A stretch of 39,391 bases of DNA from a virus (Duplodnaviria; Heunggongvirae; Uroviricota; Caudoviricetes), in IMG/VR virus record IMGVR_UViG_2778261394_000008, positions 1 through 39,391 of that record. One strand, 5' to 3'. The translations under genes and the position numbers were made by a program. The notes beneath the pieces were generated by a model that saw only the letters and a list, made by a program, of their open reading frames with translations, searched no databases and was not told where the DNA came from. Numbering within the stretch: the stretch's first letter is position 1; every line of letters starts with the position of its first letter. Positions 3,682 to 29,819 of this stretch are shown in pieces.

Positions 3682-4263
3682 TTAATGTGTCACTGGCGCT
3701 TCTGGCATACCATGAGTATTCATGTCGTTAATCATTTCATCCAGAAGGAGTTCAAGCCCTTCGCGCCCCATAGCAGAGAGAATGAAACCATTATCAGGAT
3801 CTGCGATGAGCATTTTTTGATAGAGAAACAGAACTCTCCCCATGCCTTCAGCTTCGCCATATTTTTCAATAAATCCCCATTCAACATGGTTTTGCAGGGC
3901 AATGCGAAGTGGCCCCGGGTATATACTTATACAACCATGCTTTCCCTTATAAATAACTGCGTGATCTGTGGTTCCGTTATCGTTAGGGATATCAATGGTG
4001 CCGTTCTTGTTTTCCTCTTCACTGATAAACTTCATCACATACAGCCAGCGCCACTGAGCAACCTTCAGATCGACTGAAAATCTTCCCAGCAATCCGGCAT
4101 CATCAGCTTCGGCAAGACATTGCATGATTCTTAAACCGTGCCAGTATGGATTATCGAATTCGCCATCATTAAGCCGCTGTACGGCCTCAATATAATCAAT
4201 GGTTTTATTACCAATTTTTATGCCATGTGGCGTTACTTCTGGTCGGAACTCTGAATGATTCAT
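3682..4263 (-). CDS. Hypothetical protein (193 aa)
   Basis: Track ORF trimmed to ATG at 4263 preceded by AAAGGAG SD (7-nt spacing); start overlaps the stop of the upstream 62-aa ORF (ATGA); no family recognised. Confidence 0.6.
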   Translation of the reverse strand: MNHSEFRPEVTPHGIKIGNKTIDYIEAVQRLNDGEFDNPYWHGLRIMQCLAEADDAGLLGRFSVDLKVAQWRWLYVMKFISEEENKNGTIDIPNDNGTTDHAVIYKGKHGCISIYPGPLRIALQNHVEWGFIEKYGEAEGMGRVLFLYQKMLIADPDNGFILSAMGREGLELLLDEMINDMNTHGMPEAPVTH

Positions 4264-4448
4264 AATGTTTGCTCCTTTGCTGGTGGAATAATCGTGTAGC
4301 CAGCTCTTTTTGCCATCCACAGAAATGTATCCATGCAACCAACGAATTCATTATCCAACAGATGTTTTGAGTAAATTACTTCACCATTTTCAATAGTTAG
4401 CAACACTCTTACTTTTTTATGTGTTATGTTCTGTTGTTTTTCTTTCAT
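4260..4448 (-). CDS. Hypothetical small protein (62 aa)
   Basis: GGGAGA SD upstream of ATG at 4448; stop overlaps the start of the 193-aa gene. Confidence 0.45.
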   Translation of the reverse strand: MKEKQQNITHKKVRVLLTIENGEVIYSKHLLDNEFVGCMDTFLWMAKRAGYTIIPPAKEQTL

Positions 4449-4644
4449 TTATTTATCTCCCATATGCTTTGCGCAAATACAGGTTGGCTATATGAAGATA
4501 AGAATCTCCATGTTGTGCAATGAGGCAGGCAGTTTTATACGATGCCTTATGTTTCAGGAAGGTCATAACATAATCTCCTGCGAATAAATGTTGCAACAAT
4601 CCCCGGCGATAAAACCGTAATAAACATTCAGGGAATATTTATTG

Positions 4645-5010
4645 TTATTGCGCTAATTCTTTTTCGGCAGCAGCTTTTGCATATTCACATGCAAAATTCA
4701 GAATTTCGCTGCCAAGTACTTTTGTTTCGTGATTACTGGACATATGTAATACCTGTGTTGCATGCAATAAATGATAAACATTTACCGCAAATGAATCAGG
4801 CTCCAGACAAATGCCTTCATAATCATCTTGTTGTGAGGTTGTTTCTGTCATTGCTCCTGAAGTGCATGCGAGCCTGTTTTTGACAATTCTCTTTCCTCTA
4901 ATCACTATATCGGCTACATCTATTGCCTTTACAACCTCCGGGAGAAGTTCCTGGTTTGTATAATCAAAGTTATCAACATGGAGAACAGTTATGTTTTCGA
5001 ACTTTTTCAT
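4645..5010 (-). CDS. Hypothetical protein (121 aa), paralogous to the N-terminal domain of the upstream HTH protein
   Basis: ATG at 5010 overlaps the stop of the upstream gene (ATGA at 5007-5010); its C-terminal ~55 aa aligns by eye with residues ~20-75 of the 153-aa protein (about 35% identity: LExDSFAxN..LL.A....H......K.LG.E...F..EYA..AA). Confidence 0.5.
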   Translation of the reverse strand: MKKFENITVLHVDNFDYTNQELLPEVVKAIDVADIVIRGKRIVKNRLACTSGAMTETTSQQDDYEGICLEPDSFAVNVYHLLHATQVLHMSSNHETKVLGSEILNFACEYAKAAAEKELAQ

Positions 5011-5613: not shown

Positions 5614-6303
5614 CTAACCAAATCTGTTTATATTGAATGGTACTGATGAGATCACTTTAGACTGGATATAAAGCAGAGCTAACCCCTCTTTTTCGATGCT
5701 CCATGGTTGATAATTGGGGTTATCAGATAACACCATGATTTTGCTTCCAATTTTTTGAAGTCTTTTCACGTAGCATTCTCCATCAAAACAAAATGCATAA
5801 ATGCCATCGCCATCAAAATAAGTTACTGTCTTATCAAGAAAAAGAAGGTCGCCAGGTGAGATTGTGGGAGCCATACTGTCTCCTCTGGCGTTGCCTATTT
5901 CTATATTTTTAAATGCTCGGTTTCCAACAAGACGACGGGCATATTCAGGATCAAGTTCTATTGAGCGTACTACATCTATAAAGTCTCCGCGGACATGGGT
6001 CCCATTACCGCAACTAAATTCAACGTCAAGTACATTAAATACGACGCTATCTGTTCTTGCCTGATGTTTCTCTTGCGAAGAGAAGGTTGGTGAGGTGTCT
6101 TCACCTAAGAACCAGGATTGTGGATAACCGCTAATCTCTGATAACTGCGCAAGCTTATCGCTCCGTGGAAATGTTTTTCCTGTGGTCCAGTACTGCACTG
6201 ATTGCGCACTCACCCCCAGCTTACGGGCCAGCTGAGCCTGAGTCCATCCTTTTGCTTTCAGCATTGCGGCTATTCTATTTTCTGTGTTTTTGACGTTCTT
6301 CAT
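5614..6303 (-). CDS. cI: CI-type prophage repressor (N-terminal HTH, C-terminal S24/LexA-like peptidase domain)
   Basis: 229 aa; HTH (GWTQAQLARKLGVSAQSVQYW); C-terminal Ser/Lys dyad context (GDSMAPT ... YVKRL); divergent from a cro-like gene. Confidence 0.85.
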   Translation of the reverse strand: MKNVKNTENRIAAMLKAKGWTQAQLARKLGVSAQSVQYWTTGKTFPRSDKLAQLSEISGYPQSWFLGEDTSPTFSSQEKHQARTDSVVFNVLDVEFSCGNGTHVRGDFIDVVRSIELDPEYARRLVGNRAFKNIEIGNARGDSMAPTISPGDLLFLDKTVTYFDGDGIYAFCFDGECYVKRLQKIGSKIMVLSDNPNYQPWSIEKEGLALLYIQSKVISSVPFNINRFG

Positions 6304-7542: not shown

Positions 7543-7854
7543 ATGCTTAACATTAGCAGCACTCAAAAATTAGTCAACCCTTCAGATCCTGTTGGACAAA
7601 TTCCGGTCGAACAGTGGTACAGAAGAACGTACGTGGTTTCAGAGTACGCCCGCACTTATACCGAGACAATTATCGGAAAGGCCAAATGCCCCTGTTCCGC
7701 AGCTGTGAATGGTGCGATGGCAATACGTAACGCCAATCCTTCGGTTTTATCCATCCGTTTTATAAGTATTGAGCAGCTTTCTCCTGAAGAAGGAGAGGCC
7801 AGCGAGCGCGCCCTTGACGCCTGGTTTGAGAAACATCCTGAGGAGATTGAATGA
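7543..7854 (+). CDS. Hypothetical protein (103 aa)
   Basis: AAGGA SD 9 nt upstream of ATG; stop overlaps the start of the Rha-family gene (ATGA). Confidence 0.5.
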   Translation: MLNISSTQKLVNPSDPVGQIPVEQWYRRTYVVSEYARTYTETIIGKAKCPCSAAVNGAMAIRNANPSVLSIRFISIEQLSPEEGEASERALDAWFEKHPEEIE

Positions 7855-8561
7855 TGAACACCGCAATTTTTAACGACAAAGTATCCATGACCAGCGTTGA
7901 AATCGCAGAGCTGGTTGGAAGTCAACACGGCAATGTCAGAATATCAATAGAGCGTCTGGCAAAACGCGGGGTGATTCAACTTCCTGCAATGCAAAAAGTT
8001 GAGAACGAACAATCATTTAGCCAAAACAAATTCACAAACGCATATATTTTCGAAGGCGAACAAGGCAAACGCGACAGCATCATTGTCGTCGCACAACTTT
8101 GCCCGGAATTCACTGCCCGCCTGGTAGATCGTTGGCGCGAACTGGAAGAGCAGGTGCGCAAACCAATGAGCGAAATCGAAATGGTTGCCGCGATGGCTCT
8201 TGAAGCAGTTCGTCAGCAAAAACGCCTCGACAAGATGGAAGAAAAAGTTAGCCACGTTGCCGAAACTGTCGAACAAATCAAAAGAGGCACCATACGCGAT
8301 GGTTATGCAGGATACCGTCAGCTGGTGGCGAAAACAGGTATGTCAGATGCGAAATGCCGCAATCTGGTGAACGCATATCAGATCCCTACCGACACCCATG
8401 AATTTATGACGCCGGACGGATTATTGTCTCGTCGCGCGATTGTTGCAGTAGAACCCTTCATGTTTGCTTTTCATCGCATGATGAGTGAAGCAGAACCACG
8501 AGGTACTCGCTGGTATCACCCGAAAATGGGCCTGTTTCAGGCGCTGGGCTGGCAGGTGTAA
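7851..8561 (+). CDS. Rha-family phage regulatory protein
   Basis: 236 aa; N-terminal segment TSVEIAELVGSQHGNVRISIERL matches the Phage_pRha pattern. Confidence 0.7.
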   Translation: MMNTAIFNDKVSMTSVEIAELVGSQHGNVRISIERLAKRGVIQLPAMQKVENEQSFSQNKFTNAYIFEGEQGKRDSIIVVAQLCPEFTARLVDRWRELEEQVRKPMSEIEMVAAMALEAVRQQKRLDKMEEKVSHVAETVEQIKRGTIRDGYAGYRQLVAKTGMSDAKCRNLVNAYQIPTDTHEFMTPDGLLSRRAIVAVEPFMFAFHRMMSEAEPRGTRWYHPKMGLFQALGWQV

Positions 8562-8580
8562 TTATGCTCACAGGTAACAC

Positions 8581-8757
8581 ATGCAAGTACTCAATCGCTG
8601 GTTCCGCGATGGCAGAGGGCGTCGCGTCCACGTTATACGCTGGGAGTCTGAAACACAGCGGGTCATTTACCTGCGTGATGGTTATTCGCATGAATGCTTC
8701 AGTCCGTTGTGGTTGTTTCGTCGTGATTTTGTGGAGTGTGAAGCGCCGCCAGAGTGA
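8581..8757 (+). CDS. Hypothetical small protein (58 aa)
   Basis: Not in the ORF track as such (lies in the 5' part of the 507-aa track ORF's region but in another frame); weak SD. Confidence 0.3.
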   Translation: MQVLNRWFRDGRGRRVHVIRWESETQRVIYLRDGYSHECFSPLWLFRRDFVECEAPPE

Positions 8758-8775
8758 CGGCGTAATGGTGGAAAC

Positions 8776-9084
8776 TTACACGAAGCGGATCTGGAGTTTT
8801 TTTCCTGTTGCGCGGGCAAATTTTTTCAGTGTGGAAAATGATGGTCCACTGACACCTGACGCCAGATTACTTTCCATTCTGCTGATGACAGTTGCTTTGG
8901 TTCCCATACGCTCAGCGATCTCAGCCTGGGTTAAACCAGCTTCTTTACGTGCTGCCAGCATTTCATCAAGCAGCGCAAATTCGTCGGCGATGGCGTCGTA
9001 TTCTGCTTTAAAAGCTGGATCCTTCATCCATTTATCAGCCATTTCATCATGTGTAATGGTTAGCGGATTACGTTTACCAGTCAT
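8776..9084 (-). CDS. HTH-type antitoxin (HigA-like, XRE family)
   Basis: 102 aa; HTH (GLTQAEIAERMGTKATVISRME); immediately downstream of, and overlapping, a RelE/ParE-superfamily toxin gene. Confidence 0.8.
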   Translation of the reverse strand: MTGKRNPLTITHDEMADKWMKDPAFKAEYDAIADEFALLDEMLAARKEAGLTQAEIAERMGTKATVISRMESNLASGVSGPSFSTLKKFARATGKKLQIRFV

Positions 9085-9403
9085 GCTTTACCTCCTTCAT
9101 TCTGGTTTCAGCTTTTTGGCGTTCGGCTGGTGGGGTTTTCTGAGTCTTCTTGATGAAACTATGCAGCATGATGATGCGTTTTCCTGCCAGGGTGCAGTAA
9201 AAGACGCGTGCGATGCCATCACTACCTTTAATCCGAAGCTCGAAAAGCCCGTTACCGAAAGCACTGGTATGAGGTTCTCCGAGATTGCTGCCGTATACCT
9301 TCATGCGTTCAACAAGATGCTGGTATCGGGCACGCATACTCAATGGAAGCTGGTCGACCTCCAGCCTGACCTCTTCACTGTAGTATTCGATAGTGTAGTT
9401 CAT
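9074..9403 (-). CDS. RelE/ParE-superfamily toxin (HigB-like / phage Gp49-like)
   Basis: 109 aa; toxin gene precedes the antitoxin (HigBA order); overlaps the antitoxin start by 11 nt. Confidence 0.8.
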   Translation of the reverse strand: MNYTIEYYSEEVRLEVDQLPLSMRARYQHLVERMKVYGSNLGEPHTSAFGNGLFELRIKGSDGIARVFYCTLAGKRIIMLHSFIKKTQKTPPAERQKAETRMKEVKHDW

Positions 9404-9409
9404 GAGTTA

Positions 9410-9433
9410 AAACATAACAAAATGGTTATGTTT
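9410..9433. promoter_or_regulatory. Perfect palindrome AAACATAAC-N6-GTTATGTTT in the toxin 5' leader, candidate TA operator
   Basis: 9-bp arms with 6-bp spacer, 7 nt upstream of the toxin ATG; read directly from the sequence. Confidence 0.5.
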
Positions 9434-10087
9434 GCACAATATATTGATTCTGCAATTTCGGGACGTTACACTGTTCCAGCACCTTATAAAGCGGGTGCCG
9501 GGCGTGGAAACCCGAAATTCAATATAGAGCACAACCGCGCTCATGCGGTTTTTTCGTGTCATGAGCATTGCTACGCCCAAATTATGGTGGGGCGTGCAGG
9601 GCCAACTTCGGTTGGGCCGGGTTCTATGTTGACCGGTATTTCCACCCCTGTACGTCTCACCACCTATATGGTCGTGGAAAGCCTTGGTGGTGAGTTCTTT
9701 GAATTCAACATAGGGGCTGTCACCATGACTACCACCACTACCCACCCATTCCTCAAAATTGAGATTATTAACGGTAAGACCGTTATTTTCTCTTTGCATG
9801 TAGCCTGCCATTTCAAGCGCATGCACCAGAACATCGTCGACAAAATCGAGTATCTGAACTGCTCACGCGAGTTTTTTACCCGCAATTTCATACCGGGTAC
9901 TTATCACATCTATGGTGACTCCCTGCGTGGTTATTACATCACCCTTGATGGCCTGATGATGCTTCAGCTTGGGTTAAGTCTGCGCACAATGCGGTACTAC
10001 GAGAGCTGCATTGAAGCATTCCATGAAACTGAAGCCAGTCTCAGTCACACCGCTTTCCGCCGTAATCAATGGGAGGTGCGCCCATGA
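9422..10087 (+). CDS. Hypothetical protein (221 aa; start uncertain)
   Basis: 3' portion of the 507-aa track ORF that does not overlap the antisense TA genes; codon usage looks coding; stop overlaps the start of the next ORF (ATGA at 10084-10087) with GGGAGGTG SD. Confidence 0.4.
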   Translation: MVMFAQYIDSAISGRYTVPAPYKAGAGRGNPKFNIEHNRAHAVFSCHEHCYAQIMVGRAGPTSVGPGSMLTGISTPVRLTTYMVVESLGGEFFEFNIGAVTMTTTTTHPFLKIEIINGKTVIFSLHVACHFKRMHQNIVDKIEYLNCSREFFTRNFIPGTYHIYGDSLRGYYITLDGLMMLQLGLSLRTMRYYESCIEAFHETEASLSHTAFRRNQWEVRP

Positions 10088-10308
10088 TTCGCCGCGTCGT
10101 TAATTCCCTGTATCACCGATACAACCGTTGCCCCCGTGTGGGGCAGTGGTTTGCCACCAGCAACGGTCACGTTCTGCGGGTTTGTCTGGTCAGCACCGAA
10201 AACCAGAAAGTTGTGTGTGAATTACTGGGGCGTAACTACACCATTAGCTACCCACTGGCGGTGTTTCAGTCCGGAAAAATGTTTAAACGCCTGGGAGGTG
10301 CCGTGTGA
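10084..10308 (+). CDS. Hypothetical small protein (74 aa)
   Basis: Strong SD (GGGAGGTG) 5 nt upstream; translationally coupled to both flanking genes. Confidence 0.45.
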   Translation: MIRRVVNSLYHRYNRCPRVGQWFATSNGHVLRVCLVSTENQKVVCELLGRNYTISYPLAVFQSGKMFKRLGGAV

Positions 10309-11231
10309 GTAGCAAAATTCTCGGTAACGTCTGGGATGCATGTGCCGCGTATGGAGTCAAAGGTGCAAAGCTGATGATCATGGCGCGTCTGGCTGATTAT
10401 TCGAATGATGACGGGGTGTGTTATCCCGGTGTTGAAACAATATGCCGACAGCTTGGGTTGGGAGAAAGCACAGTAAGAACGGCAATTTCAGAGCTGGAGG
10501 CTGATGGCTGGCTGACGCGTCAGTCACGTCGCAAAGGTAATCGTAATACGTCCAATCTTTATCATCTGAATGCTGATCGGCTTGAACAGCTTGCCAGAAC
10601 GGAGCGGGATAAGGTCGCTGAACTGAAACAGCAACGCAGACTTTCAGTATTACGTGACCCGTCAGAATCTGAACCTTCAAAATCTGACCCGTCAGAATCT
10701 GAATGTTCAGGTGTGTTTGACCCTTCAGATTCTGGCAAAAAAACGGTTTTGACCCTTCAAAATCTGGCCCCAGATCCACAAGGTTTAAAACATGATCCGC
10801 AAGTAAATTCAAAACATGATCCGCAAGATATTGGCGCATCCGCTGACGCGTCTGCACCAGCGCGCTCAGCCCGACAGGAATATTCACCGGAATTTGAACA
10901 GGCCTGGCAGGAATATCCCAAACGTGCTGGTGGTAATTCCAAGTCGGCAGCCTTCAAAGCCTGGAAAGCCCGTCTCAGGGAGGGAATAAAACCGGAGATC
11001 ATGCTTGATGGTGTGAGACGTTATGCCGCCTGGGTACGTGCTACAGGAAATACCGGCACACAGTTCGTGAAGCAGGCTGCGACGTTCTTTGGACCCGATC
11101 GTCACTTCGAAGATTTCTGGCAACAGCCAGCCGCTCCCGGAGGTGGGCGACAGCGACAGGTCGATGTCCTGTCTGGCCTTGGTGCCATGTCTGACAAATT
11201 CGGTAAATCCAGTGACAAATTGACATTCTGA
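10305..11231 (+). CDS. Replication initiator (lambda O-like role; N-terminal winged-HTH, iterons inside the gene)
   Basis: 308 aa, GTG start overlapping the previous stop; N-terminal HTH-like region; a direct-repeat iteron array lies inside the coding sequence, as in lambda O; followed by DnaC-like and DnaB-like genes. Confidence 0.65.
   Translation: MSSKILGNVWDACAAYGVKGAKLMIMARLADYSNDDGVCYPGVETICRQLGLGESTVRTAISELEADGWLTRQSRRKGNRNTSNLYHLNADRLEQLARTERDKVAELKQQRRLSVLRDPSESEPSKSDPSESECSGVFDPSDSGKKTVLTLQNLAPDPQGLKHDPQVNSKHDPQDIGASADASAPARSARQEYSPEFEQAWQEYPKRAGGNSKSAAFKAWKARLREGIKPEIMLDGVRRYAAWVRATGNTGTQFVKQAATFFGPDRHFEDFWQQPAAPGGGRQRQVDVLSGLGAMSDKFGKSSDKLTF
10655..10827. repeat. Putative replication origin: iteron array plus downstream direct repeats
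   Basis: tgacccgtcagaatctgaa x2 (10655, 10685), tgacccttcagattctgg (10718), tgacccttcaaaatctgg (10750), spaced ~30-33 bp; then aaaacatgatccgcaag x2 (10788, 10811). Confidence 0.65.
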
Positions 11232-11241
11232 GGTGACAGCG

Positions 11242-12120
11242 ATGATGACGTTTAACCTGCGTGAACAACAAACAAGACTACAGGCGCGAATGGATGAGTT
11301 ACGGGCAGAGATTGCATTTGCTCAGAAGGGCGAAAAGCCATGGCCTTATCGTTCCTGCCTGATGCGTGAAGGTCGCGGGTATTGCGAAAAACACGGTAAA
11401 TACCATACGCATATACTGGTGTGGAGCGATCGCAATGGCGAGGACAGAGAAAAAATTTCATGCTGCCCTGACTGCTTGATCGCTGAGGCCAACGATTTGA
11501 CCATGGAGCTGTCGTCCCTCAAGGCGGAAGAGCTGACTGATAACGCCGGAATTGCCCTGCGTTTTCGGGACTGTGAGTTTGATAACTATCTGGAGGTTAA
11601 TCCTGACGCAGCCAGAAATCTTGCAGCCTGTCGCCGCTATGCGGAGAACTGGCCAGATATACTGGAGAACGGCACCAGTCTTGTTATGACTGGCAGTTGC
11701 GGTACCGGGAAAAATCATCTGGCGGTATCAATGGCAAAACACATCATCCGTAATCATCTGGCCAGCGTGGAGATCACCGACGTGATGCGCCTTACCCGTG
11801 CTGTGAAAAACTGCTGGCGGAATGACAGCGAAAAAACAGCGGATGAAGTTATTGAGCATTATGCGTCAATGGATTTGCTGATCATCGACGAAGTTGGTGT
11901 TCAGTTTGGCAGCGCGGCTGAAATGGCTATTTTGCAGGAAATTATCAATGCCCGGTACGAAAGTATCCTGCCCACCATCCTGATCAGCAACCTTTCACCG
12001 GAAGAGTTGTGGGCGTTCATCAGCCCCCGCATTGCCGACAGGATCACAGACGGGGGGCGCAACTGGTTGTCGTTCAACTGGCCCAGCTACCGTTCTCGTA
12101 TCAGAGATGTGGCTGCATGA
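11242..12120 (+). CDS. DnaC-like helicase loader / IstB-like AAA+ ATPase
   Basis: Walker A GSCGTGKNHL and Walker B LLIIDEVG; GAGGTG SD. Confidence 0.85.
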   Translation: MMTFNLREQQTRLQARMDELRAEIAFAQKGEKPWPYRSCLMREGRGYCEKHGKYHTHILVWSDRNGEDREKISCCPDCLIAEANDLTMELSSLKAEELTDNAGIALRFRDCEFDNYLEVNPDAARNLAACRRYAENWPDILENGTSLVMTGSCGTGKNHLAVSMAKHIIRNHLASVEITDVMRLTRAVKNCWRNDSEKTADEVIEHYASMDLLIIDEVGVQFGSAAEMAILQEIINARYESILPTILISNLSPEELWAFISPRIADRITDGGRNWLSFNWPSYRSRIRDVAA

Positions 12121-13508
12121 CAACACCAGTCTGGCGTAACGATGACCTGGAAGGCGCTGTCATTGGCGCGTTCTTTCTGCGTGGGGCAGATCCTGAAGTG
12201 ATGGATATTCTGGCCACACTACCTGCGGACGTTTTTTCTGTACGAGCGTATCGGGATATCTACACAGGCATCTGCAGACAGGCCCGTGTTTCAGGCGTGA
12301 TTGACCCTGTGCTGTTGTGTAATGAGATGCCGGAACTTGCCCCGGTGATTACTGATACCGGGCGCAAAACCTGGGTGAAGTCTTCACTGGAGCACTATGT
12401 TGCAGCGTTGCGGCGCAATGCCGCATTGCGCGATGCAGAAAAAACGCTGAATGAGGCGCTGCAGAAATTACGTGATGCGCATACCTGTGAAGCGGCTGAA
12501 GATGCTCTGAAGGATGCGCAGAACATGATGGCCTCATTGTCGACGGAAAAGGGCGCTATTCAGCCGGTACATATTGATGATGTGCTTCCGGAAGTGGTTG
12601 AGCGTGTTGAATGCCGGAATCAGGGACTGGAGAAATCCAGGACGTTGATGACCGGTATTGATGAACTGGACGCAAAAACAGGTGGCATGGATCCCGGCGA
12701 CCTGGTATTTATTGCGGCTCGTCCGTCAATGGGCAAAACCGAACTGGCGCTGGATATCATCGACAAGGTGACTGAGCAGGGGCATGGTGTTCTTCTGTTC
12801 ACAATGGAAATGGCGAACATCCAGATTGGTGAACGCATGGTATCTGCGGCTGGAGGAATGCCGGTATCACGCCTGAAATCTGTCACTCACTTTGAAGACG
12901 AAGATTGGGCACGTTTCTCACAAGGAGTGGGGCGGATGACCGGGCGCAATATCTGGATGGTGGACCAGGCGAACCTGACCATTGATGAGATATGCGCAAC
13001 AACGAAACATCACCTGATTAAACATCCGGAAACGGCGCTGGTGGTGGTTGATTATCTCGGGCTGATAAAAACCCGAACCACGGGGCGTCATGACCTTGCC
13101 GTGGGTGAAATCTCAAAGGGGCTTAAAGGCCTGGCAAAATCCGGTGGTTTTCCGTTGATTGCGCTGAGCCAGCTTTCCCGTGGTGTGGAGTCCAGGCCCA
13201 ATAAACGCCCTATGAACTCAGACCTGAAAAATTCCGGAGAAATAGAGGCGGATGCAGACATCATTCTGATGCTTTACAGGGATGAAGTGTACAACCCGGA
13301 TACGCAGGCCAGAGGCATTGCAGAAATCAATATCACGAAACAACGTAACGGTTCTCTGGGGACGATTTACCGGCGTTTTTATAACGGACATTTTCTGCCC
13401 GTAGACCAGGAAAGCGCACAGATTCTTTCCACCCCAATGCAGCAGCCCCAGCCGCGCAGATACAGCAATAAGCGAACCGACAGCAGTAAGATGGAGCGTT
13501 TCTTTTGA
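12117..13508 (+). CDS. DnaB-family replicative helicase
   Basis: 463 aa from ATG at 12117 (ATGA overlap with the upstream stop); Walker A ARPSMGKT, Walker B VVVDYLG; DnaB-like C-terminal RecA fold motifs. Confidence 0.9.
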   Translation: MTTPVWRNDDLEGAVIGAFFLRGADPEVMDILATLPADVFSVRAYRDIYTGICRQARVSGVIDPVLLCNEMPELAPVITDTGRKTWVKSSLEHYVAALRRNAALRDAEKTLNEALQKLRDAHTCEAAEDALKDAQNMMASLSTEKGAIQPVHIDDVLPEVVERVECRNQGLEKSRTLMTGIDELDAKTGGMDPGDLVFIAARPSMGKTELALDIIDKVTEQGHGVLLFTMEMANIQIGERMVSAAGGMPVSRLKSVTHFEDEDWARFSQGVGRMTGRNIWMVDQANLTIDEICATTKHHLIKHPETALVVVDYLGLIKTRTTGRHDLAVGEISKGLKGLAKSGGFPLIALSQLSRGVESRPNKRPMNSDLKNSGEIEADADIILMLYRDEVYNPDTQARGIAEINITKQRNGSLGTIYRRFYNGHFLPVDQESAQILSTPMQQPQPRRYSNKRTDSSKMERFF

Positions 13509-16286: not shown

Positions 16287-17333
16287 ATGGCTAATACTGT
16301 AAAAATATCCAGTTGTGAGTTAATCAACGCTGATTGCCTGGAATTTATCCGGACCTTACCGGAAAACTCTGTCGATCTGATAGTCACAGACCCGCCATAC
16401 TTTAAAGTGAAGCCCGAGGGCTGGGATAACCAGTGGAAGGGGGACGATGATTACCTGAAATGGCTGGCTCAGTGTCTGGCGCAGTTCTGGCGGGTACTGA
16501 AACCTGCCGGAAGTCTCTACCTGTTCTGTGGTCATCGCCTGGCATCTGATATCGAAATCATGATGCGTGAACGCTTTAATGTGCTGAACCACATTATCTG
16601 GGCGAAGCCGTCCGGACGCTGGAATGGGTGCAACAAGGAAAGCCTGCGGGCGTATTTCCCGGCAACAGAGCGCATTTTGTTTGCCGAACATTATCAGGGG
16701 CCATACCAGCCCAAAAGTGACGGTTATGCAGCAAAGGGGCGCGAGCTTAAGCAGCATGTCATGGCCCCGCTGATTTCTTACTTTCGTGATGCGCGCGAAT
16801 CACTGGGGATAACGTCAAAACAGATAGCAGAAGCCACCGGAAAGAAAAACATGGCTTCGCACTGGTTTGGTACCAGTCAGTGGCAGTTACCGAATGAGGC
16901 CGATTACAGTAAACTGCAGGCGCTGTTTGCACGTGTGGTGGCAGAAAAACACCAGCGCGGTGAACTGGAGCAGCCACACCACCAGCTGGTCAGCACATAC
17001 AGCGAACTGAACCGGCAATATGCCAGCCTGCTGGAGGAATACAAATCACTGCGGCGTTATTTTTCCGTATCGGCTGTCGTTCCTTATACGGATGTCTGGA
17101 CGCACAAGCCCGTGCAGTTTTATCCGGGTAAGCATCCCTGTGAAAAACCGGCGGATATGTTGCGTCAGATAATTACTGCCAGCAGCCGTCCAGGCGATTT
17201 GGTCGCAGATTTTTTTATGGGGTCGGGGTCGACAATAAAAGCGGCACTGTCGCTGGGATGCAGGGCGATTGGCGTGGAACTGGAAGAGGAACGTTTTAAT
17301 CAGACGGTCAGAGAAATAACGAAAGATTTTTAA
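16287..17333 (+). CDS. DNA methyltransferase, beta-class amino-MTase (N6-adenine or N4-cytosine), orphan
   Basis: 348 aa; motif IV DPPY near the N-terminus (IVTDPPYF) and motif I FxGxG near the C-terminus (FFMGSGST); no adjacent restriction endonuclease gene. Confidence 0.85.
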   Translation: MANTVKISSCELINADCLEFIRTLPENSVDLIVTDPPYFKVKPEGWDNQWKGDDDYLKWLAQCLAQFWRVLKPAGSLYLFCGHRLASDIEIMMRERFNVLNHIIWAKPSGRWNGCNKESLRAYFPATERILFAEHYQGPYQPKSDGYAAKGRELKQHVMAPLISYFRDARESLGITSKQIAEATGKKNMASHWFGTSQWQLPNEADYSKLQALFARVVAEKHQRGELEQPHHQLVSTYSELNRQYASLLEEYKSLRRYFSVSAVVPYTDVWTHKPVQFYPGKHPCEKPADMLRQIITASSRPGDLVADFFMGSGSTIKAALSLGCRAIGVELEEERFNQTVREITKDF

Positions 17334-22521: not shown

Positions 22522-23070
22522 ATGAAGGTTAATAAAAAGAAGCTCGCGGAAATTTTCAACGTGGATCCACGAACGATTGAACGCTGGCAGTCTCAGGGGC
22601 TCTCTTGTGTCTCTGGTGGTAGTAAGGGGGTTGAATCTGTATTTGATACCGCCATGGCAATTCAGTGGTATGCGCAGCGCGAAGCCGATATTGAAAACGA
22701 AAAACTCCGCAAAGAGACCGAGGATTTGCGTGCGGCTGCGGAATCAGATTTACAACCCGGCACCATTGACTATGAGCGCTACCGACTCACAAAAGCACAG
22801 GCTGATGCACAGGAACTGAAAAATGCCCGCGAAGAAGGGCTGGTACTGGAAACGGAATTGTTTACCTTCATTCTGCAACGTGTGGCACAGGAGATTTCGG
22901 GGATACTTGTACGTGTGCCGCTGACATTACAGCGTAAATATCCGGATATTTCACCGTCACACCTTGATGTGGTGAAAACTGAAATCGCAAAAGCCTCCAA
23001 CGTTGCAGCTAAAGCTGGTGAGAACGTAGGCGGGTGGATTGATGATTTCAGACGCACAGAAGGCAGCTAA
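22522..23070 (+). CDS. Nu1: Terminase small subunit (lambda Nu1-like)
   Basis: 182 aa starting [12 protein letters not shown]; recalled strong similarity to lambda gpNu1 including the N-terminal winged HTH. Confidence 0.9.
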
Positions 23071-24958
23071 TGCAGCCGGTGCGATAGCAACAGGGCTTGT
23101 ATCTCTCAATATTCCGGTACCACTGACGACAGTTCAGTGGGCTGATCAGCATTATTATCTGCCAAAAGAGTCTTCATATACTCCCGGGCAATGGGAAACA
23201 CTGCCGTTTCAGGTTGCCATCATGAACAGCATGGGGAATGACCGGATCCGCACCGTTAATCTGATTAAATCGGCGCGTGTTGGTTACACCAAAATGCTGT
23301 TGGGGGTGGAGGCTTATTTTATTGAACACAAATCCCGTAACAGCCTGCTTTTTCAGCCGACAGATTCTGCGGCAGAAGATTTTATGAAATCCCATGTCGA
23401 ACCAACGATAAGAGACGTTCCTGTATTACTGGAGCTGGCTCCGTGGTTTGGCAGAAAACATCGGGACAACACGCTTACCCTGAAACGTTTCTCCTCCGGT
23501 GTGGGATTCTGGTGTCTGGGCGGAGCTGCTGCCAAAAACTACCGTGAAAAATCTGTGGATGTGGTCTGCTATGACGAACTCTCCTCGTTTGAACCGGATG
23601 TGGAAAAAGAAGGTTCACCAACTCTGCTTGGTGATAAGCGTATCGAAGGTTCGGTATGGCCTAAATCCATACGCGGCTCAACGCCCAAAATTAAAGGTTT
23701 TTGCCAGATTGAAAAAGCCGCGAACGAATCTGCACATTTTATGCGGTTTTATGTGCCATGCCCTCATTGTGGTGAAGCCCAGTATCTGAAGTTTGGCGAT
23801 GATGCGACAACCTTTGGCCTGAAATGGGAGAAGGGCAAGCCGGAGACGGTGTATTACCTGTGTGAACATAATGGCTGCGTGATCCGTCAGTCGGAACTTG
23901 ACCATACCGACGGGCGGTGGATTTGTGACAATACCGGGATGTGGACGCGTGACGGTCTGACATTTTACAGCGCCGGTGATGAGGAAATCCCGCCACCGCG
24001 CTCAATCTCGTACCACATCTGGACGGCATACAGCCCGTTCACCACCTGGGTACAGATTGTTTATGACTGGCTTGATGCACTGAAGGATCCGAATGGCGTC
24101 AAGACGTTCATTAACACCACGCTGGGGGAGCCTTATGAAGAGGCTGTGGCAGAAAAACTGAGCTTTGAGTTGTTGCTGGAAAAAGTCTGCCACTATGATG
24201 CGCAGGTTCCCCTGCGGGTGGTTTACCTGACCGCAGGGATCGACTCACAGAAAAACCGTTATGAGATTTATGTCTGGGGCTGGGCTCCCGGCGAAGAAGC
24301 TTTTCTGATTGACAAGCAGATCATCATGGGGAGACCGGAAGATGAGGACACCCTTAAACGCGTTGATGCCGTGATCCGGAAAAAATACCGTCATGCAGAT
24401 GGCACTGAAATTTCCATTTCCCGCGTCTGCTGGGATACCGGTGGTATTGACCAGGACATTGTGTATCAGCGTTCCAGAAAACACGGCACTTTTTTTGTGC
24501 TCCCCATCAAAGGGGCATCGGTGTACGGCAAGCCGGTGATCACCATGCCAAAAAAGCGAAACCAGCGTGGGGTGTTTTTGTGTGAGGTGGGTTCCGATAC
24601 CGTCAAGGAAATGCTGTATGCGCGTTTTGCCCTGCCGGTGGTATCTGCCAGTGAAGCCGCACCGTATACCTTCCGTTTTCCGGATAACCCTGACATTTTT
24701 TCTGATGTTGAAGCTAAACAACTCGTGGCAGAAGAGCTGGTTGAAAAAGTTGTGAACGGGCGGGTGAAACTCCAGTGGGATGCCAGAAAACGGCGTAATG
24801 AAGCTCTGGACTGTCTGGTGTATGCCTATGCAGCGCTGCGCATTTCCGTTCAGCGGTGGCAACTGGATCTGGATGTACTGGCCCGCGCCAGAAGAGATGA
24901 ACAGGACGACGATGAAATGACTATTGAAGAAATCGCGGCTGCTCTGAGTGGAGGATAA
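23042..24958 (+). CDS. A: Terminase large subunit (lambda A-like)
   Basis: About 638 aa; high similarity to lambda gpA along the whole length (e.g. [36 protein letters not shown]). Confidence 0.95.
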
Positions 24959-24961
24959 GTG

Positions 24962-25171
24962 ATGATTTATACGCATGAAATGCTATGCGATGCCCGCCGG
25001 GCGTTACATGAACTGATGATCGGACGTGCTGTGGTTTCCGTCAGCAAGGACGGGCGTCAGGTTCAGTATTCGCGGGCGACAATTGGTGAACTGCGTCAGT
25101 ATATTGAAGAGCTGGAAAGTGCGCTGGGTGTATCCGGACGGCGTCGTGGTCCGGCAGGAGTGGGGCTGTGA
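24962..25171 (+). CDS. W: Head-tail joining protein W
   Basis: 69 aa; GGAGGA SD; similar to lambda gpW (ARRALHELM, RRRGPAG). Confidence 0.85.
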   Translation: MIYTHEMLCDARRALHELMIGRAVVSVSKDGRQVQYSRATIGELRQYIEELESALGVSGRRRGPAGVGL

Positions 25172-26739
25172 ACGGGGAACTGGTGGATATTCATGGGCAG
25201 CCTTTACGGCAAGGCATGGGATATTCTGGTGGTGGTTCCGGGGTCGGTGGGCAAATGGCAGAATGGCTGCCTGCACCGGAAAGTGCCGACGTGGCGCTCT
25301 TACCTTCCATTCATCTGGGTAACGCCCGCGCGGATGATCTGGTCCGTAACAACGGTATTGCATCGAATGCAGTGGAAATTCATAAGGATCATATTGTCGG
25401 GCACATGTTTCGTCTGAGTTACCGTCCCAACTGGCGCTGGCTGGGGATGTCGGAAGCAGATTCACATGCTTTTATTGAAGATGTTGAGGCGGCGTGGATG
25501 GAATACTGCGATCCGGTGTTTGGTACGATGGATGTGGAAGGGCGTCGTTCGTTTACCGAATTCATTCGTGAAGGGGTGGGGGTCCATACGTTTAACGGTG
25601 AAATTTTTGTCCAGCCCGTATGGGATGCGGAATCCACGTCATTATTCCGGACGAAATTCAAAACCATCAGCCCGAAGCGTGTCAGTACACCCGGTTATGG
25701 TACCGGCGATCGTTTTATGCGTGCCGGGGTGGAAATAAACCGACACGGAAAAGCGCTGGCCTACCATGTTCAGGATGATGACTGGCCCGGCTACGGTGTC
25801 AGTAAATGGACACGAATTACGGCAACACTGCCTTCCGGACGACCGGGAATGATCCATGTGTTTCAGCCACAGGAAGACGGGCAGACCCGCGGGGCCAACC
25901 AGTTTTATTCTGTAATGGAGCGTCTCAAGATGCTCGACACACTGCAGGCCACGCAACTGCAGTCGGCGGTGGTTCGCGCCATGTATGCCGCCACGATTGA
26001 ATCCACACTGGATTCGGAAAAAGCGTTTGAATATATCGCCGGGGTGGGAGATGGAGGTAAAAATCCCCTGAACACCATCATGAAAGGCTACGCGCGTTAT
26101 TACGCCACCAATACGGTAAAACTGGGCGGGGTCCGTATTCCGCATCTTTACCCGGGAGATTCACTGAATCTGCAGACAGCCCAGAATGCGGATAATGGTT
26201 TTTCTGAACTGGAAAAGGCGCTGTTACGTTACATTGCTGCCGGACTGGGTGTGTCGTATGAGCAGCTTTCCCGGGATTATTCACAGGTCAGTTATTCCAG
26301 TGCCAGGGCATCCGCCAATGAGTCGTGGCGGTATTTTATGGGAAAACGAAAATTTGTGGCCAGTCGCCTGGCGTCACAGATGTTTGCCTGCTGGCTGGAG
26401 GAAGCCCTTATTCGTGGTGTGATCCGTCCGCCGAAATCCCGTTTCTCATTCTGGGAGGCCCGTTCCGGGTGGTGCCGTGCCGAGTGGATTGGTGCCGGTC
26501 GTATGGCGATTGATGGTCTTAAGGAAGTGCAGGAAGCGGTGATGCGCATTGAAGGCGGCCTGAGTACATACGAGAAAGAGCTGGCCCTGATGGGGGATGA
26601 CTATCAGGAGATTTTCCGCCAGCAGCTACGGGAAACTCAGGAGCGACAGGCTGCCGGTCTTCCGCGTCCGGTCTGGATAAAGGACGCGTTTCAACAGCAG
26701 ATCCGACAGACAACGGGAGAAAAAGGCGATGCGCTGTAA
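25168..26739 (+). CDS. B: Portal protein (lambda B-like)
   Basis: 523 aa, GTG start overlapping the W stop; similarity to lambda gpB throughout. Confidence 0.93.
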   Translation: MNGELVDIHGQPLRQGMGYSGGGSGVGGQMAEWLPAPESADVALLPSIHLGNARADDLVRNNGIASNAVEIHKDHIVGHMFRLSYRPNWRWLGMSEADSHAFIEDVEAAWMEYCDPVFGTMDVEGRRSFTEFIREGVGVHTFNGEIFVQPVWDAESTSLFRTKFKTISPKRVSTPGYGTGDRFMRAGVEINRHGKALAYHVQDDDWPGYGVSKWTRITATLPSGRPGMIHVFQPQEDGQTRGANQFYSVMERLKMLDTLQATQLQSAVVRAMYAATIESTLDSEKAFEYIAGVGDGGKNPLNTIMKGYARYYATNTVKLGGVRIPHLYPGDSLNLQTAQNADNGFSELEKALLRYIAAGLGVSYEQLSRDYSQVSYSSARASANESWRYFMGKRKFVASRLASQMFACWLEEALIRGVIRPPKSRFSFWEARSGWCRAEWIGAGRMAIDGLKEVQEAVMRIEGGLSTYEKELALMGDDYQEIFRQQLRETQERQAAGLPRPVWIKDAFQQQIRQTTGEKGDAL

Positions 26740-28345
26740 TTTATCACATATTGCCGCGATGGCATTTAATGAGCCGCTTTTACTGGAACCCGCCTATGCG
26801 CGGGTTTTCTTTTGCGCACTGGGTAAGGAGATGGGGGCGGGCAGCCTTGCCGTTCCGCAGCAGGCCGTTCAGCTTGATGCCGATGGTATGCAGCTGGCGG
26901 TTACCGATTATATGACTGGTGGTCCGCGTCCGGTAAAGAGTTACCAGGTGAAAAATGGTATTGCCATTCTGCCGGTGAGCGGCACGCTGGTACATAAAAT
27001 GGGTACCCTGCGGCCATATTCCGGTATGACCGGTTATGACGGTCTGACTGCCCGTCTTAAGTCAGCGGTGAACGACCCGGATGTACGCGGCATTTTACTG
27101 GATATCGACAGTCCGGGCGGTCAGGCTGCCGGGGCGTTTGACTGTGCTGACATGATTTACCGTCTGCGGGAACAGAAGCCCGTGTGGGCGCTGTGTAATG
27201 ACATGGCCTGTTCAGCCGCCATGTTGCTGGCGGCGGCCTGTACGCGTCGGCTGGTCACGCAGACGGCAAAAATTGGTTCGATTGGTGTGATGATGGCGCA
27301 CACCAGTTACGAGAAACAACTGGCACAGGAAGGCGTGGATATCACGCTGATTTACTCCGGGCAGCACAAGGTTGACGGCAACAGTATTCAGGCGTTGCCG
27401 ACAGGTGTGCGTGCGGATTTTCAGCGCCGTATTGATGAGGCCCGCCGGATGTTTGTCGACAAGGTGGCACTTTATACGGGGCTGAGTTCAGAGGTGGTGA
27501 TGAATACCGAGGCTGCCGTTTATGACGGTCAGGCAGGCATTGATACAGGCCTGGCTGATCAACTGATTAATGCTGCAGATGCCGTTGATGTAATGGTTTC
27601 TGCTCTGAACGACTCTGTTACACAGGAGAATACGATGACAACAAAAAATCTCACCGTTGCTGAAGCGGTGTCCCAGGAAAATCAGCGCGTGATGGGGATC
27701 CTGAATTGTCAGGAGGCGAAAGGACGCGAAAAACTGGCGCAGATGCTGGCAGGTCAGCAGGGAATGTCAGTTGAGCAGGCAAAAACATTACTGGCGGCAG
27801 CACCGGTTGCCGGTACTGACAGCACAGGCGATCAGATTATGGCACTTCCGGAAGCAAAAGGGCGTGAACAACTGGCACGGACGCTGGCTGAACAGCCGGG
27901 AATGACGGTGGAGCAGGCGAAAACGTTACTGGCAGCGGCACCGGTTTCCGGTGCGGCAAGTACCGGCGAGCAGATTATGGCACTTTCGGAAGCAAAAGGG
28001 CGTGAACAACTCGCACAGGCGCTGGCTGAACAGCCGGGAATGACGGTGGAACAGGCGAAAATGCTACTGGTAGCGGCACCGGCAACCGGTACGGCAAGTA
28101 CCGGCGATCAGATTATTGCGTTGCCGGAAGCAAAAGGACGCGAACAACTGGCACAGGCGCTGGCTGAACAGCCGGGAATGACAGTGGAGCGGGCGAAAAC
28201 GCTGCTGGCAGCTGCGCCATCAGTATCGCAACCGTCACAGGTAACACTTTTTGAGCGCTTCATGGCACAGCATGCCGCCAGTGCCGTTTCCGGTGGCGGA
28301 ACTGCCGGGAACGGGGAAGAAGAACTGCTGATGAGTATGCCGTAA
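26729..28345 (+). CDS. C: Head maturation protease / minor capsid protein C (S49-like) with C-terminal scaffold region
   Basis: 538 aa; N-terminal half similar to lambda gpC (HIAAMAFNEPLLLEPAYARVFFCAL); C-terminal part contains tandem repeats. Confidence 0.9.
   Translation: MRCNLSHIAAMAFNEPLLLEPAYARVFFCALGKEMGAGSLAVPQQAVQLDADGMQLAVTDYMTGGPRPVKSYQVKNGIAILPVSGTLVHKMGTLRPYSGMTGYDGLTARLKSAVNDPDVRGILLDIDSPGGQAAGAFDCADMIYRLREQKPVWALCNDMACSAAMLLAAACTRRLVTQTAKIGSIGVMMAHTSYEKQLAQEGVDITLIYSGQHKVDGNSIQALPTGVRADFQRRIDEARRMFVDKVALYTGLSSEVVMNTEAAVYDGQAGIDTGLADQLINAADAVDVMVSALNDSVTQENTMTTKNLTVAEAVSQENQRVMGILNCQEAKGREKLAQMLAGQQGMSVEQAKTLLAAAPVAGTDSTGDQIMALPEAKGREQLARTLAEQPGMTVEQAKTLLAAAPVSGAASTGEQIMALSEAKGREQLAQALAEQPGMTVEQAKMLLVAAPATGTASTGDQIIALPEAKGREQLAQALAEQPGMTVERAKTLLAAAPSVSQPSQVTLFERFMAQHAASAVSGGGTAGNGEEELLMSMP
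27636..28345 (+). CDS. Nu3: Nested in-frame scaffold protein (Nu3-like) from an internal start within C
   Basis: Internal ATG at 27636 preceded by AGGAGA SD, in the same frame as C, as in the lambda C/Nu3 arrangement. Confidence 0.55.
27711..28230 (+). repeat. Tandem ~138-bp in-frame repeats (about 3.7 copies) within the C/Nu3 coding region
   Basis: Repeated peptide unit EAKGREQLAQALAEQPGMTVEQAKTLLAAAPxxGxxSTGDQIMAL, read directly from the sequence. Confidence 0.75.
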
Positions 28346-28385
28346 GCGGGGATCCGTGATTCAGATAAATCAGGAGACTGAGAAA

Positions 28386-28721
28386 ATGATTAAAACCACC
28401 ACAGAAAAGCGCGCGGACGGGCGCATTTTTGCCGGAAGCGATCCGGTGTATACCGCAACAGGTACCAGTGGTATCAGTGTTGCCACGCCTTCACTGACGC
28501 CACTGATGCTGGATGACGCCAGCGGAAAACTGGTGGCATGGGATGGTCAGAAAGCCGGAACGGCTGTGGGGGTGCTGGCACTGGCGCTGGCCGGGACCGA
28601 GCCCGTACTGACGTACTACAAAAGTGGTACGTTTGCCACCGAATCGCTGGTCTGGCCGGATTCGGTGGATGCGGTGAAAAAAGCCAACGCGTTTGTGGGA
28701 AGTGCCATCAGCCACGCCTGA
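28386..28721 (+). CDS. D: Head decoration protein D
   Basis: 111 aa; similar to lambda gpD (TPLMLD, KLVAWDG, YKSGTF). Confidence 0.9.
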   Translation: MIKTTTEKRADGRIFAGSDPVYTATGTSGISVATPSLTPLMLDDASGKLVAWDGQKAGTAVGVLALALAGTEPVLTYYKSGTFATESLVWPDSVDAVKKANAFVGSAISHA

Positions 28722-28790: not shown

Positions 28791-29819
28791 ATGGGGTTAT
28801 TTACCACGCGTCAGTTGCTCGGCTACACCGAGCAGAAAGTGAAATTCCGTGCGCTGTTTCTGGAGCTGTTTTTTCGTCGTACGGTCACTTTCCATACTCA
28901 GGAAGTGATGCTGGATAAAATCACCGGAAAAACACCGGTTGCGGCATATGTGTCTCCGGTTGTGTCAGGTAAGGTACTGCGCAGTCGTGGTGGTGAAACC
29001 CGCGTGTTACGCCCCGGCTATGTTAAACCAAAACACCGGCTGGATTATCAGCAGGCGGTGGAGCGTCTTCCGGGGGAAGATCCGGCCCGTCTTAATGACC
29101 CGGCCTACCGTCGCCTGCGTATTCTGACTGACAACCTGAAACAGGAAGAACAGGCGATTGTGCAGGTGGAAGAAATGCAGGCGGTCAGCGCTGTTCTGCA
29201 GGGTAAGTACACCATGAGCGGTGAACAGTTTGAGACGGTGGAAGTGGATTTTGGACGTTCTGCCGCCAATAACATTACGCAGGCAGGGGGACGCGAATGG
29301 TCAAAACAGAATGCTGACACCTTTGATCCGACGCATGATCTGGATGCGTACTGCGATTTTGCTTCCGGTACCATCAATATTGCGATTATGGACGGTACTG
29401 TCTGGCGTATGCTGAACGGTTTTAAACTGTTTCGTGAAAAACTGGATACCCGCCGTGGCTCAAAATCTGAACTGGAAACCGCGCTGAAAGATCTGGGGTC
29501 CGTGGTTTCTTTTAAAGGTTATTACGGTGATCTGGCCATCATGGTGGCGAAAACAACGTATGTTGATGAAAACGGGGATGAGCAGCGTTATCTGCCGGAA
29601 GGCACACTGATTCTTGGAAACACTCAGGTGGAGGGTGTCCGTTGTTATGGCGCAATCCAGGATAACCAGGCGCTGAGTGAAGGGATCACCTCTGCAATTC
29701 GTTATCCGAAACACTGGTTAGAGGTGGGGGACCCGGGGTGCGAATATACCATGACGCAGTCTGCGCCGTTGATGGTGTTGCCGGATCCGGACGCGTTTGT
29801 GGTGGTTCAGGTGAAATAA
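28791..29819 (+). CDS. E: Major capsid protein E
   Basis: 342 aa; strong similarity to lambda gpE. Confidence 0.95.
   Translation: MGLFTTRQLLGYTEQKVKFRALFLELFFRRTVTFHTQEVMLDKITGKTPVAAYVSPVVSGKVLRSRGGETRVLRPGYVKPKHRLDYQQAVERLPGEDPARLNDPAYRRLRILTDNLKQEEQAIVQVEEMQAVSAVLQGKYTMSGEQFETVEVDFGRSAANNITQAGGREWSKQNADTFDPTHDLDAYCDFASGTINIAIMDGTVWRMLNGFKLFREKLDTRRGSKSELETALKDLGSVVSFKGYYGDLAIMVAKTTYVDENGDEQRYLPEGTLILGNTQVEGVRCYGAIQDNQALSEGITSAIRYPKHWLEVGDPGCEYTMTQSAPLMVLPDPDAFVVVQVK

Follow-up and report, generated by a model that had tools for sequence, protein, structure and literature searches.

The 39,391-nucleotide window analyzed here (positions 1–39,391 of IMG/VR virus record IMGVR_UViG_2778261394_000008, an E. 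coli prophage from the tailed phages, Caudoviricetes) carries a prohead protease/scaffold gene with a tandem repeat, which is the subject of this report. The gene resembles lambda C: its product is an S49 protease, and an internal in-frame start is predicted to yield a Nu3-type scaffold protein from the same 3′ end. Four tandem copies of a conserved unit lie in the part shared by the two products. The four-unit array is genuine and inherited. The reading that we favor, and consider probable, is an inherited four-fold duplication of a conserved Nu3 module that would result in a longer scaffold with several binding modules.

Tandem Repeats Finder located a single tandem array between positions 26000 and 30000, at 27712–28212 on the plus strand, with a period of 138 bp (3.6 copies, 85% matches, 0% indels, score 666). 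The period corresponds to 46 codons, in frame with the open reading frame (ORF) at 26729–28345, and the ORF list contains no ORF of at least 60 amino acids (aa) overlapping the array in the other five frames. In the protein, EAKGRE anchors place four units at aa 329, 375, 421, and 467, and there are four complete cores (aa 317–359, 365–405, 411–451, and 457–497). The fourth unit is missing just the inter-unit linker, so the program counts 3.6 copies even though the protein has four modules. The preliminary description had put the array at about 3.7 in-frame copies of some 138 bp, in good agreement with these values.

All elements of the array are on the plus strand. Unit 1 (ENQRVMGILNCQEAKGREKLAQMLAGQQGMSVEQAKTLLAAAP; 27677–27805) scores 78.1 bits against a hidden Markov model (HMM) of the unit and is followed by the Gly/Ser/Thr-rich linker 1 (VAGTD; 27806–27820). 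Unit 2 (27821–27943, 84.9 bits), linker 2 (VSGAA; 27944–27958), unit 3 (27959–28081, 79.0 bits), linker 3 (ATGTA; 28082–28096), and unit 4 (28097–28219, 81.0 bits) come next, and the protein ends in a single-copy C-terminal tail (SVSQPSQVTLFERFMAQH...EELLMSMP; 28220–28342). The linkers are five residues long, or about nine flexible residues at most if the low-confidence edges of the units are included, and all three coincide with low inter-unit confidence (predicted local distance difference test, pLDDT) in an AlphaFold2 model. Over the 138-bp period the units differ pairwise by 12–42%, so that sequencing reads can tell them apart.

The preliminary description left undecided whether the array was a real scaffold variant or a product of assembly. 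We compared a 1,001-bp query across the array with 5,426 complete E. coli genomes, 106 of which contain the gene. Eighteen match without a gap over exactly 1,001 bp (98.3–99.4% identity), and nearly all other complete-genome matches listed show 84–89% identity over a span of 988–998 bp, the length of four units. Four units have been retained in lineages that are 11–16% apart in nucleotide sequence. One complete genome, PapRG-04-4, has a span of 863 bp, which is one 138-bp unit fewer, and its translation has three units. Five of the listed matches are partial: four of them reach no further than query position 819, and the fifth is cut short where its record ends. In that last case (NZ_CP041417.1, 305588–306169), the match is cut off at the end of a 306-kb record labelled STEC711 plasmid; this record is perhaps mis-joined, a replicon not fully closed, or a phage-plasmid. 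Among sequenced E. coli the four-unit allele is common and goes under the generic annotation "S49 family peptidase."

Were the array an artefact, short-read mis-assembly would have inflated a single or shorter unit. Arrays of this kind do break short-read assemblies: numerous relatives in the databases are "partial" genes from contigs some 500 bp long, and draft assemblies of one sublineage, whose internal units are 100% identical, give 2, 3, 4, or 5 copies. The units of the window, however, are divergent enough to be resolved, the 18 complete genomes have this arrangement without a gap, nearly all other listed carriers have the four-unit length, and divergence among the copies is mainly synonymous, which no assembly error could create. 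We reject an artefact on the complete-genome matches and this synonymous divergence and give it practically no weight. The comparison with homologous prophages that had been proposed as a check thus favors the genuine variant of the two options and disposes of the other.

The partial genes merit a remark of their own. The "partial" S49 peptidases include P0002, P0032, P0063, P0073, P0074, P0077, and others on contigs of 470–660 bp, and their clusters have up to ~380 members. Short-read assemblies of E. coli seem to break often at the array. A frameshifted four-unit gene on a 5.19-Mb contig (P0026, 323 aa) is either a pseudogene or the result of a sequencing error within the array.

The 538-aa ORF (26729–28345, plus strand) has an N-terminal S49 peptidase domain and a C-terminal scaffold region. 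Pfam Peptidase_S49 (PF01343) matches aa 146–290 (E = 3e-33), NCBIfam SppA_dom matches at E = 2e-31, short of the equivalog cut-off, as one would expect of a phage paralog, and PHROG 53, "head maturation protease," matches at E = 6e-215. The protease part is 72% identical in amino acid sequence to phage 21 gp5 and 62% to lambda C, and the CSA segment, which surrounds the catalytic serine of lambda gpC, is conserved (NDMACSAAMLL in the window and NDMNCSAGQLL in lambda). Upstream lies a lambda-family portal gene (25168–26739; Phage_portal_2, E = 3e-95), and downstream lie genes for a D-type decoration protein (28356–28721; HDPD, E = 5e-22) and an E-type major capsid protein (28791–29819; Phage_cap_E, E = 7e-65). 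All the defining features of the lambda C/Nu3 family that we tested are present, namely the S49 domain, the position between portal and D/E genes, and the unit motif near the C terminus. The assignment of the repeat-bearing ORF to C/Nu3, already made in the preliminary description, is borne out by Pfam, PHROG, and the gene neighborhood alike.

A nested in-frame scaffold ORF of the Nu3/gp6 type, 236 aa long, is predicted at 27635–28345 on the plus strand. Its ATG (27635–27637) lies 906 nucleotides, or 302 codons, downstream of the protease start (27635 − 26729) and is preceded, at 6-nt spacing, by the Shine-Dalgarno sequence AGGAG (27624–27628, plus strand), as read from the DNA. The predicted protein starts with MTTKNLTVAEAVSQ (N-terminal peptide MTTKNLTVAEAVSQENQR). 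A nested start with a strong Shine-Dalgarno sequence just upstream of the repeats had been proposed; we confirm the signal and move the start by one nucleotide, from 27636 to 27635. Over the C-terminal 236 aa there are four stretches of similarity to PHROG 8399, "head scaffolding protein" (E = 6e-52). In an alignment, the internal Met is two residues away from the start annotated for phage 21 gp6, and phage 21 has an annotated ribosome binding site at the place equivalent to the AGGAG. Because the nested start lines up this closely with that of phage 21 gene 6, the predicted scaffold carries the repeats, as the preliminary description had supposed. Homology and gene order together support the view that the 538-aa ORF encodes a lambda C-type S49 protease with a nested, repeat-bearing Nu3-type scaffold.

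Unit copy number was counted with the HMM on 121 loci, which were fetched by their protease domain alone, so that the sample is not biased toward repeats. (A protein homologue search gave mainly fragments of at most 409 aa, unfit for copy counting.) The phage 21 clade, with proteases 72–81% identical to that of the window, always has three units. The window's own clade (protease 91–100% identical) has mostly four, with three in L057, L076, and L080, two in L058, L059, and L092, and five in L060. Lambda has one unit, as do a few distant marine relatives. Among the phage 21-type alleles, P0044, P0045, and P0047 have an in-frame deletion that takes out most of the second unit.

Seven of the IMG/VR loci, L054–L060, together with L089, have near-identical protease, decoration, and capsid proteins, with the array at about 3985–4675 of each locus. 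The internal 138-bp units of the L054–L060 sublineage show 100% identity to one another, and copy numbers of 2, 3, 4, and 5 are reported. These are draft assemblies with identical internal units, and the counts are for that reason not trustworthy; the spread reflects either real slippage or collapse and expansion during assembly. PapRG-04-4 offers firmer ground. Its three-unit allele is accompanied by a capsid protein 100% identical to that of the window, which means that copy number is not tied to a change in the capsid, and we found no coupling between unit copy number and capsid protein among the alleles compared. The window allele is present in none of 50,697 deposited phage records, where the best scaffold match (61% identity) is to phage 21-like phages.

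A profile of the four units was then compared with 1.84 billion representative proteins (E ≤ 1e-3) and gave 426 matches. Among those listed, 147 were new relative to the earlier search; of these, 133 carry a single unit, 10 (mostly fragments) carry two, and 4 carry three. A single unit is also found in 56 of the 57 listed proteins of at least 380 aa, and in the listed matches the median distance from the end of the last unit to the C terminus is 50 aa. When 45 diverse Nu3-like proteins are aligned, no block other than the unit is conserved; its motif is I-x4-E-A-x-G-R-x3-A-x2-L-A-x9-A-x3-L-x3-P, and the I, E-A-x-G-R, A, L-A, A, L, and P positions are invariant or nearly so. The N-terminal parts of these proteins are variable and of low complexity, and their tails are variable too; F..FM and LLMxMP in the tail are conserved among enterobacterial relatives, not across the wider family. 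Neither Pfam nor NCBIfam has a model that covers the unit. These searches identify the single conserved module of lambda-type scaffolds. Judged by its distribution over the sequences, one unit is the ancestral norm, and tandem arrays are characteristic of the enterobacterial lineage of the phage 21 type. Two distant scaffold-like proteins (P0075 and P0257) combine a diverged pair of units with another kind of C-terminal repeat, W[DE]xxLKSRGM, and the unit may have been duplicated independently outside the enterobacterial phages.

Phage 21 is the closest known system. Its GenBank record M81255, a head-operon sequence that is probably that of Smith and Feiss (1993), annotates repeat_region features named "Tri1 box," "Tri box," and "Tri3 box," whose function it gives as "function unknown; putative." Since phage 21 already has three annotated units, a multi-copy expansion is not new for the family. 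Genes 5 and 6 of phage 21 (M81255; OL657228) share with the window the order of portal, protease with nested scaffold, decoration, and capsid genes, the place of the nested start, and the tandem repetition of the unit motif in the scaffold region; the proteases are 72% and the capsid proteins 85% identical in amino acid sequence. The phage 21 array has three units with 58–63% core identity, whereas the window has four, with 74–88% nucleotide identity over 138 bp among units 1–3 and, unlike phage 21, an even spacing of 46 codons. We found no description of the four-unit allele in the searchable literature, and the evidence for the Tri boxes is the GenBank annotation.

Lambda C/Nu3 (NC_001416) likewise combines an S49 protease and an in-frame nested scaffold in the same head-gene neighborhood; in the record, nu3 is annotated in frame inside C (440 codons). 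By HMM and translation, lambda C holds a single unit (...ENSRIMGILNCEEAHGREEQARVLAETPGMTVKTARRILAAAP...), as the preliminary description had stated. This one conserved unit (ILNCEEAHGREEQARVLAETPGMTVKTARRILAAAP) lies about 40 aa before the C terminus and follows a low-complexity stretch of some 115 aa, which is absent from the window gene. Lambda Nu3 (L001, 833–1438; 201 aa) has one unit behind a long N-terminal part of low complexity, and phage 21 gp6 (L002, 2386–2988; 200 aa) has three units with hardly any N-terminal part; the window scaffold has 236 aa. That Nu3 and gp6 are equal in length and different in composition hints that overall length or bulk matters. The hint fits both a scaffold with several binding sites and one in which the extra units are filler.

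The units differ in their apparent age. Unit 1 has 72% nucleotide identity to Tri1 and 65.8% to the lambda unit, as against 58–60% for the other units of the window, and the DNA match to phage 21 extends into unit 1, to position 27780. We infer that the ancestral copy is unit 1, to which phage 21 Tri1 and lambda's sole unit are orthologous. Units 2–4 have 61–68% identity to each Tri box with no clear partner, a pattern consistent with later duplication and gene conversion; they are best regarded as younger and partly homogenised. The synonymous divergence (dS) of the unit cores is 0.115 for the youngest pair (units 2 and 3), 0.45–0.54 relative to unit 4, and 0.8–1.2 relative to unit 1. Related four-unit clades vary in which units resemble which, and unit 2 of PapRG-04-4 is a mosaic of units 2 and 3 of the window; both are signs of unequal recombination and gene conversion. 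The ratio of nonsynonymous to synonymous divergence (dN/dS) between paralogs is 0.14–0.25, with a value of 0.55 for the youngest pair, which has few differences. Differences from unit 1 fall mostly at third codon positions (18 of 28 and 23 of 36, for example), and every copy in the window has kept all of the family-invariant residues. By these measures, all four copies are under purifying selection.

AlphaFold2 was used to predict the structure of the scaffold. For the whole 236-aa protein, with an alignment of 15 sequences, the model was poor (mean pLDDT 54.8, predicted template modeling score (pTM) 0.20), with helices inside the units and low-confidence linkers. The title of Medina et al. 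(2011; cited in PMC11922011) terms lambda gpNu3 intrinsically disordered, a description with which the poor model agrees. Unit 4 plus the tail, modeled with 45 diverse sequences, gave a pLDDT of 88–91 for the unit, which folds into three short helices (residues 6–12, 20–27, and 34–43 of the model); the tail has a weaker, moderate-confidence helix at LFERFMAQH and a disordered end. Each unit is therefore predicted, from these models, to be a three-helix module of about 40 residues on flexible linkers. A Foldseek search against viral models returned nothing significant, its three best matches being S49 prohead proteases, and a search by sequence found no related PDB chain, and hence no solved structure of Nu3 or a relative.

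Two further comparisons were made. Scaffolds of the P22 gp8 type offer an analogy only, in that they too have a small helical motif in a largely flexible scaffold, which must make contact with the capsid protein; the role of the P22 C-terminal helix-turn-helix coat-binding motif has been described (PMC11922011). The Nu3 unit has no sequence or fold similarity to the gp8 coat-binding domain, so membership of that type was rejected and the likeness is architectural. Tandem three-helix arrays of the staphylococcal protein A type were also discarded, as the scores were not significant, there is no homology, and the biology is unrelated.

In the mechanism that we favor, an in-register duplication of the Nu3 module in the phage 21-type lineage would have created the array, and unequal recombination and gene conversion among the units would continue to reshape it. 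In-frame nesting of the scaffold ORF means that the four modules belong both to the 236-aa scaffold and to the C-terminal domain of the 538-aa protease. Every module would act as an independent site of contact with another protein, for which the E-type capsid protein, the portal, and a second scaffold chain are the candidates. With four such modules the scaffold would be longer and could bind at several sites, the protease would be loaded into the procapsid in the same way, and the geometry of the capsid would be unaffected by the extra modules. Interactions of lambda Nu3 with Nu3, C, E, and the portal B have been listed (PMC3224144). That the unit binds the capsid protein or the portal is a tentative proposal, to which we would give not quite an even chance; this partner and any benefit of having several binding sites are inferred.

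Several points weigh against this mechanism. The capsid-binding element is located at or near the scaffold C terminus in P22, the herpesviruses, and 80alpha, and by analogy the single-copy tail could be the capsid-binding part, with the units serving in oligomerisation or spacing. Lambda, with one unit, and phage 21, with three, make working heads with related capsids, so extra units are not required. The three-unit allele occurs beside the same capsid protein, and 2–5 units occur in near-identical head modules, although, with internal units that are 100% identical, these counts may reflect errors of draft assembly. Finally, no isolated phage in the phage collection has the four-unit allele, and a function in live virus is predicted only.

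The strongest competitor, which we nevertheless find doubtful, holds that the units are self-association modules and that a larger scaffold core is built as tandem copies pair with one another, in one chain or across chains. Nu3–Nu3 interaction and dimers have been reported for lambda (PMC3224144). A three-helix unit of only 40 residues may need a partner surface for stability. The C-terminal position of the capsid-binding element in other scaffolds points the same way, since here the C terminus is the single-copy tail. However, AlphaFold2 predicted no confident packing of one unit against another (pTM 0.20), and the unit is conserved across the family while the tail is not, which makes the unit the more likely bearer of a family-wide contact.

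An unlikely explanation, in our estimate, is neutral length polymorphism, in which the extra units are flexible filler and copy number drifts through slippage and recombination. Related head modules with similar or identical capsid proteins do have one to five copies, and the near-equal lengths of Nu3 and gp6 with one and three units would place bulk above unit count. The disorder named in the title on gpNu3 and the low-confidence model of the whole scaffold (pLDDT 54.8) would also suit a filler. Filler should be free of residue-by-residue constraint, yet each copy has kept all the family-invariant residues, dN/dS between paralogs is low even though dS reaches about 1, and four units have been maintained across the divergent lineages described above. 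The converse proposal is that the natural series of one to five modules is non-neutral, with module number setting the binding sites and the reach of the scaffold and protease-targeting domain; this too we think improbable at present. Were it true, module number would tune the capsid subunits recruited per chain, the protease packed, or the fidelity of assembly, four modules would be selectively maintained in the window's prophage clade, and the series would be a ready-made system for studying how the number of scaffold binding sites controls procapsid assembly.

We attach very little weight to a role of the repeat at the DNA or RNA level, as a regulatory site, a purposeful recombination hotspot, or a source of internal translation starts: each unit does have in-frame ATG codons (GM, IM), and one phage 21 record places pattern-matched "CII binding sites" on the opposite strand of this gene, but the internal ATGs have no strong Shine-Dalgarno sequence, synonymous sites are near saturation relative to unit 1 while the protein is conserved, and the idea was rejected on the absence of promoter-like sites, terminators, and Rfam matches from the array.

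The four-unit array overturns nothing known, and its value lies in annotation, in assembly practice, and in the natural copy-number series. It explains many of the "partial" copies in the databases, as short-read assemblies break or miscount there. Natural versions with one to five copies beside near-identical capsid proteins provide a handle on what the Nu3 module binds and on the importance of module number.

The window as a whole (1–39391) resembles a complete lambdoid prophage with integrase, repressor, replication, terminase, head, and tail genes. We assigned an integrase (75–1361, minus strand), a CI-like repressor (5614–6303, minus strand), Ant (7851–8561), O-like and DnaB-like replication genes (10305–11231 and 12009–13508), a DNA methyltransferase (16287–17333), and the large terminase (23039–24958). 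The tail genes are about 82% identical to those of mEp460-type phages, and the head module has no close match among deposited phages. On the plus strand, Rfam matches at gathering level were found for isrK (9479–9555, 61.6 bits) and C4 antisense RNA (9580–9667, 82.4 bits). Both fall within an ORF at 8564–10087 (507 aa) that has similarity to Rha/Ant-type regulators only from about aa 285 and is probably over-extended. By sequence, this region looks like a P1/P7-style C4/antirepressor immunity module in a lambdoid prophage.

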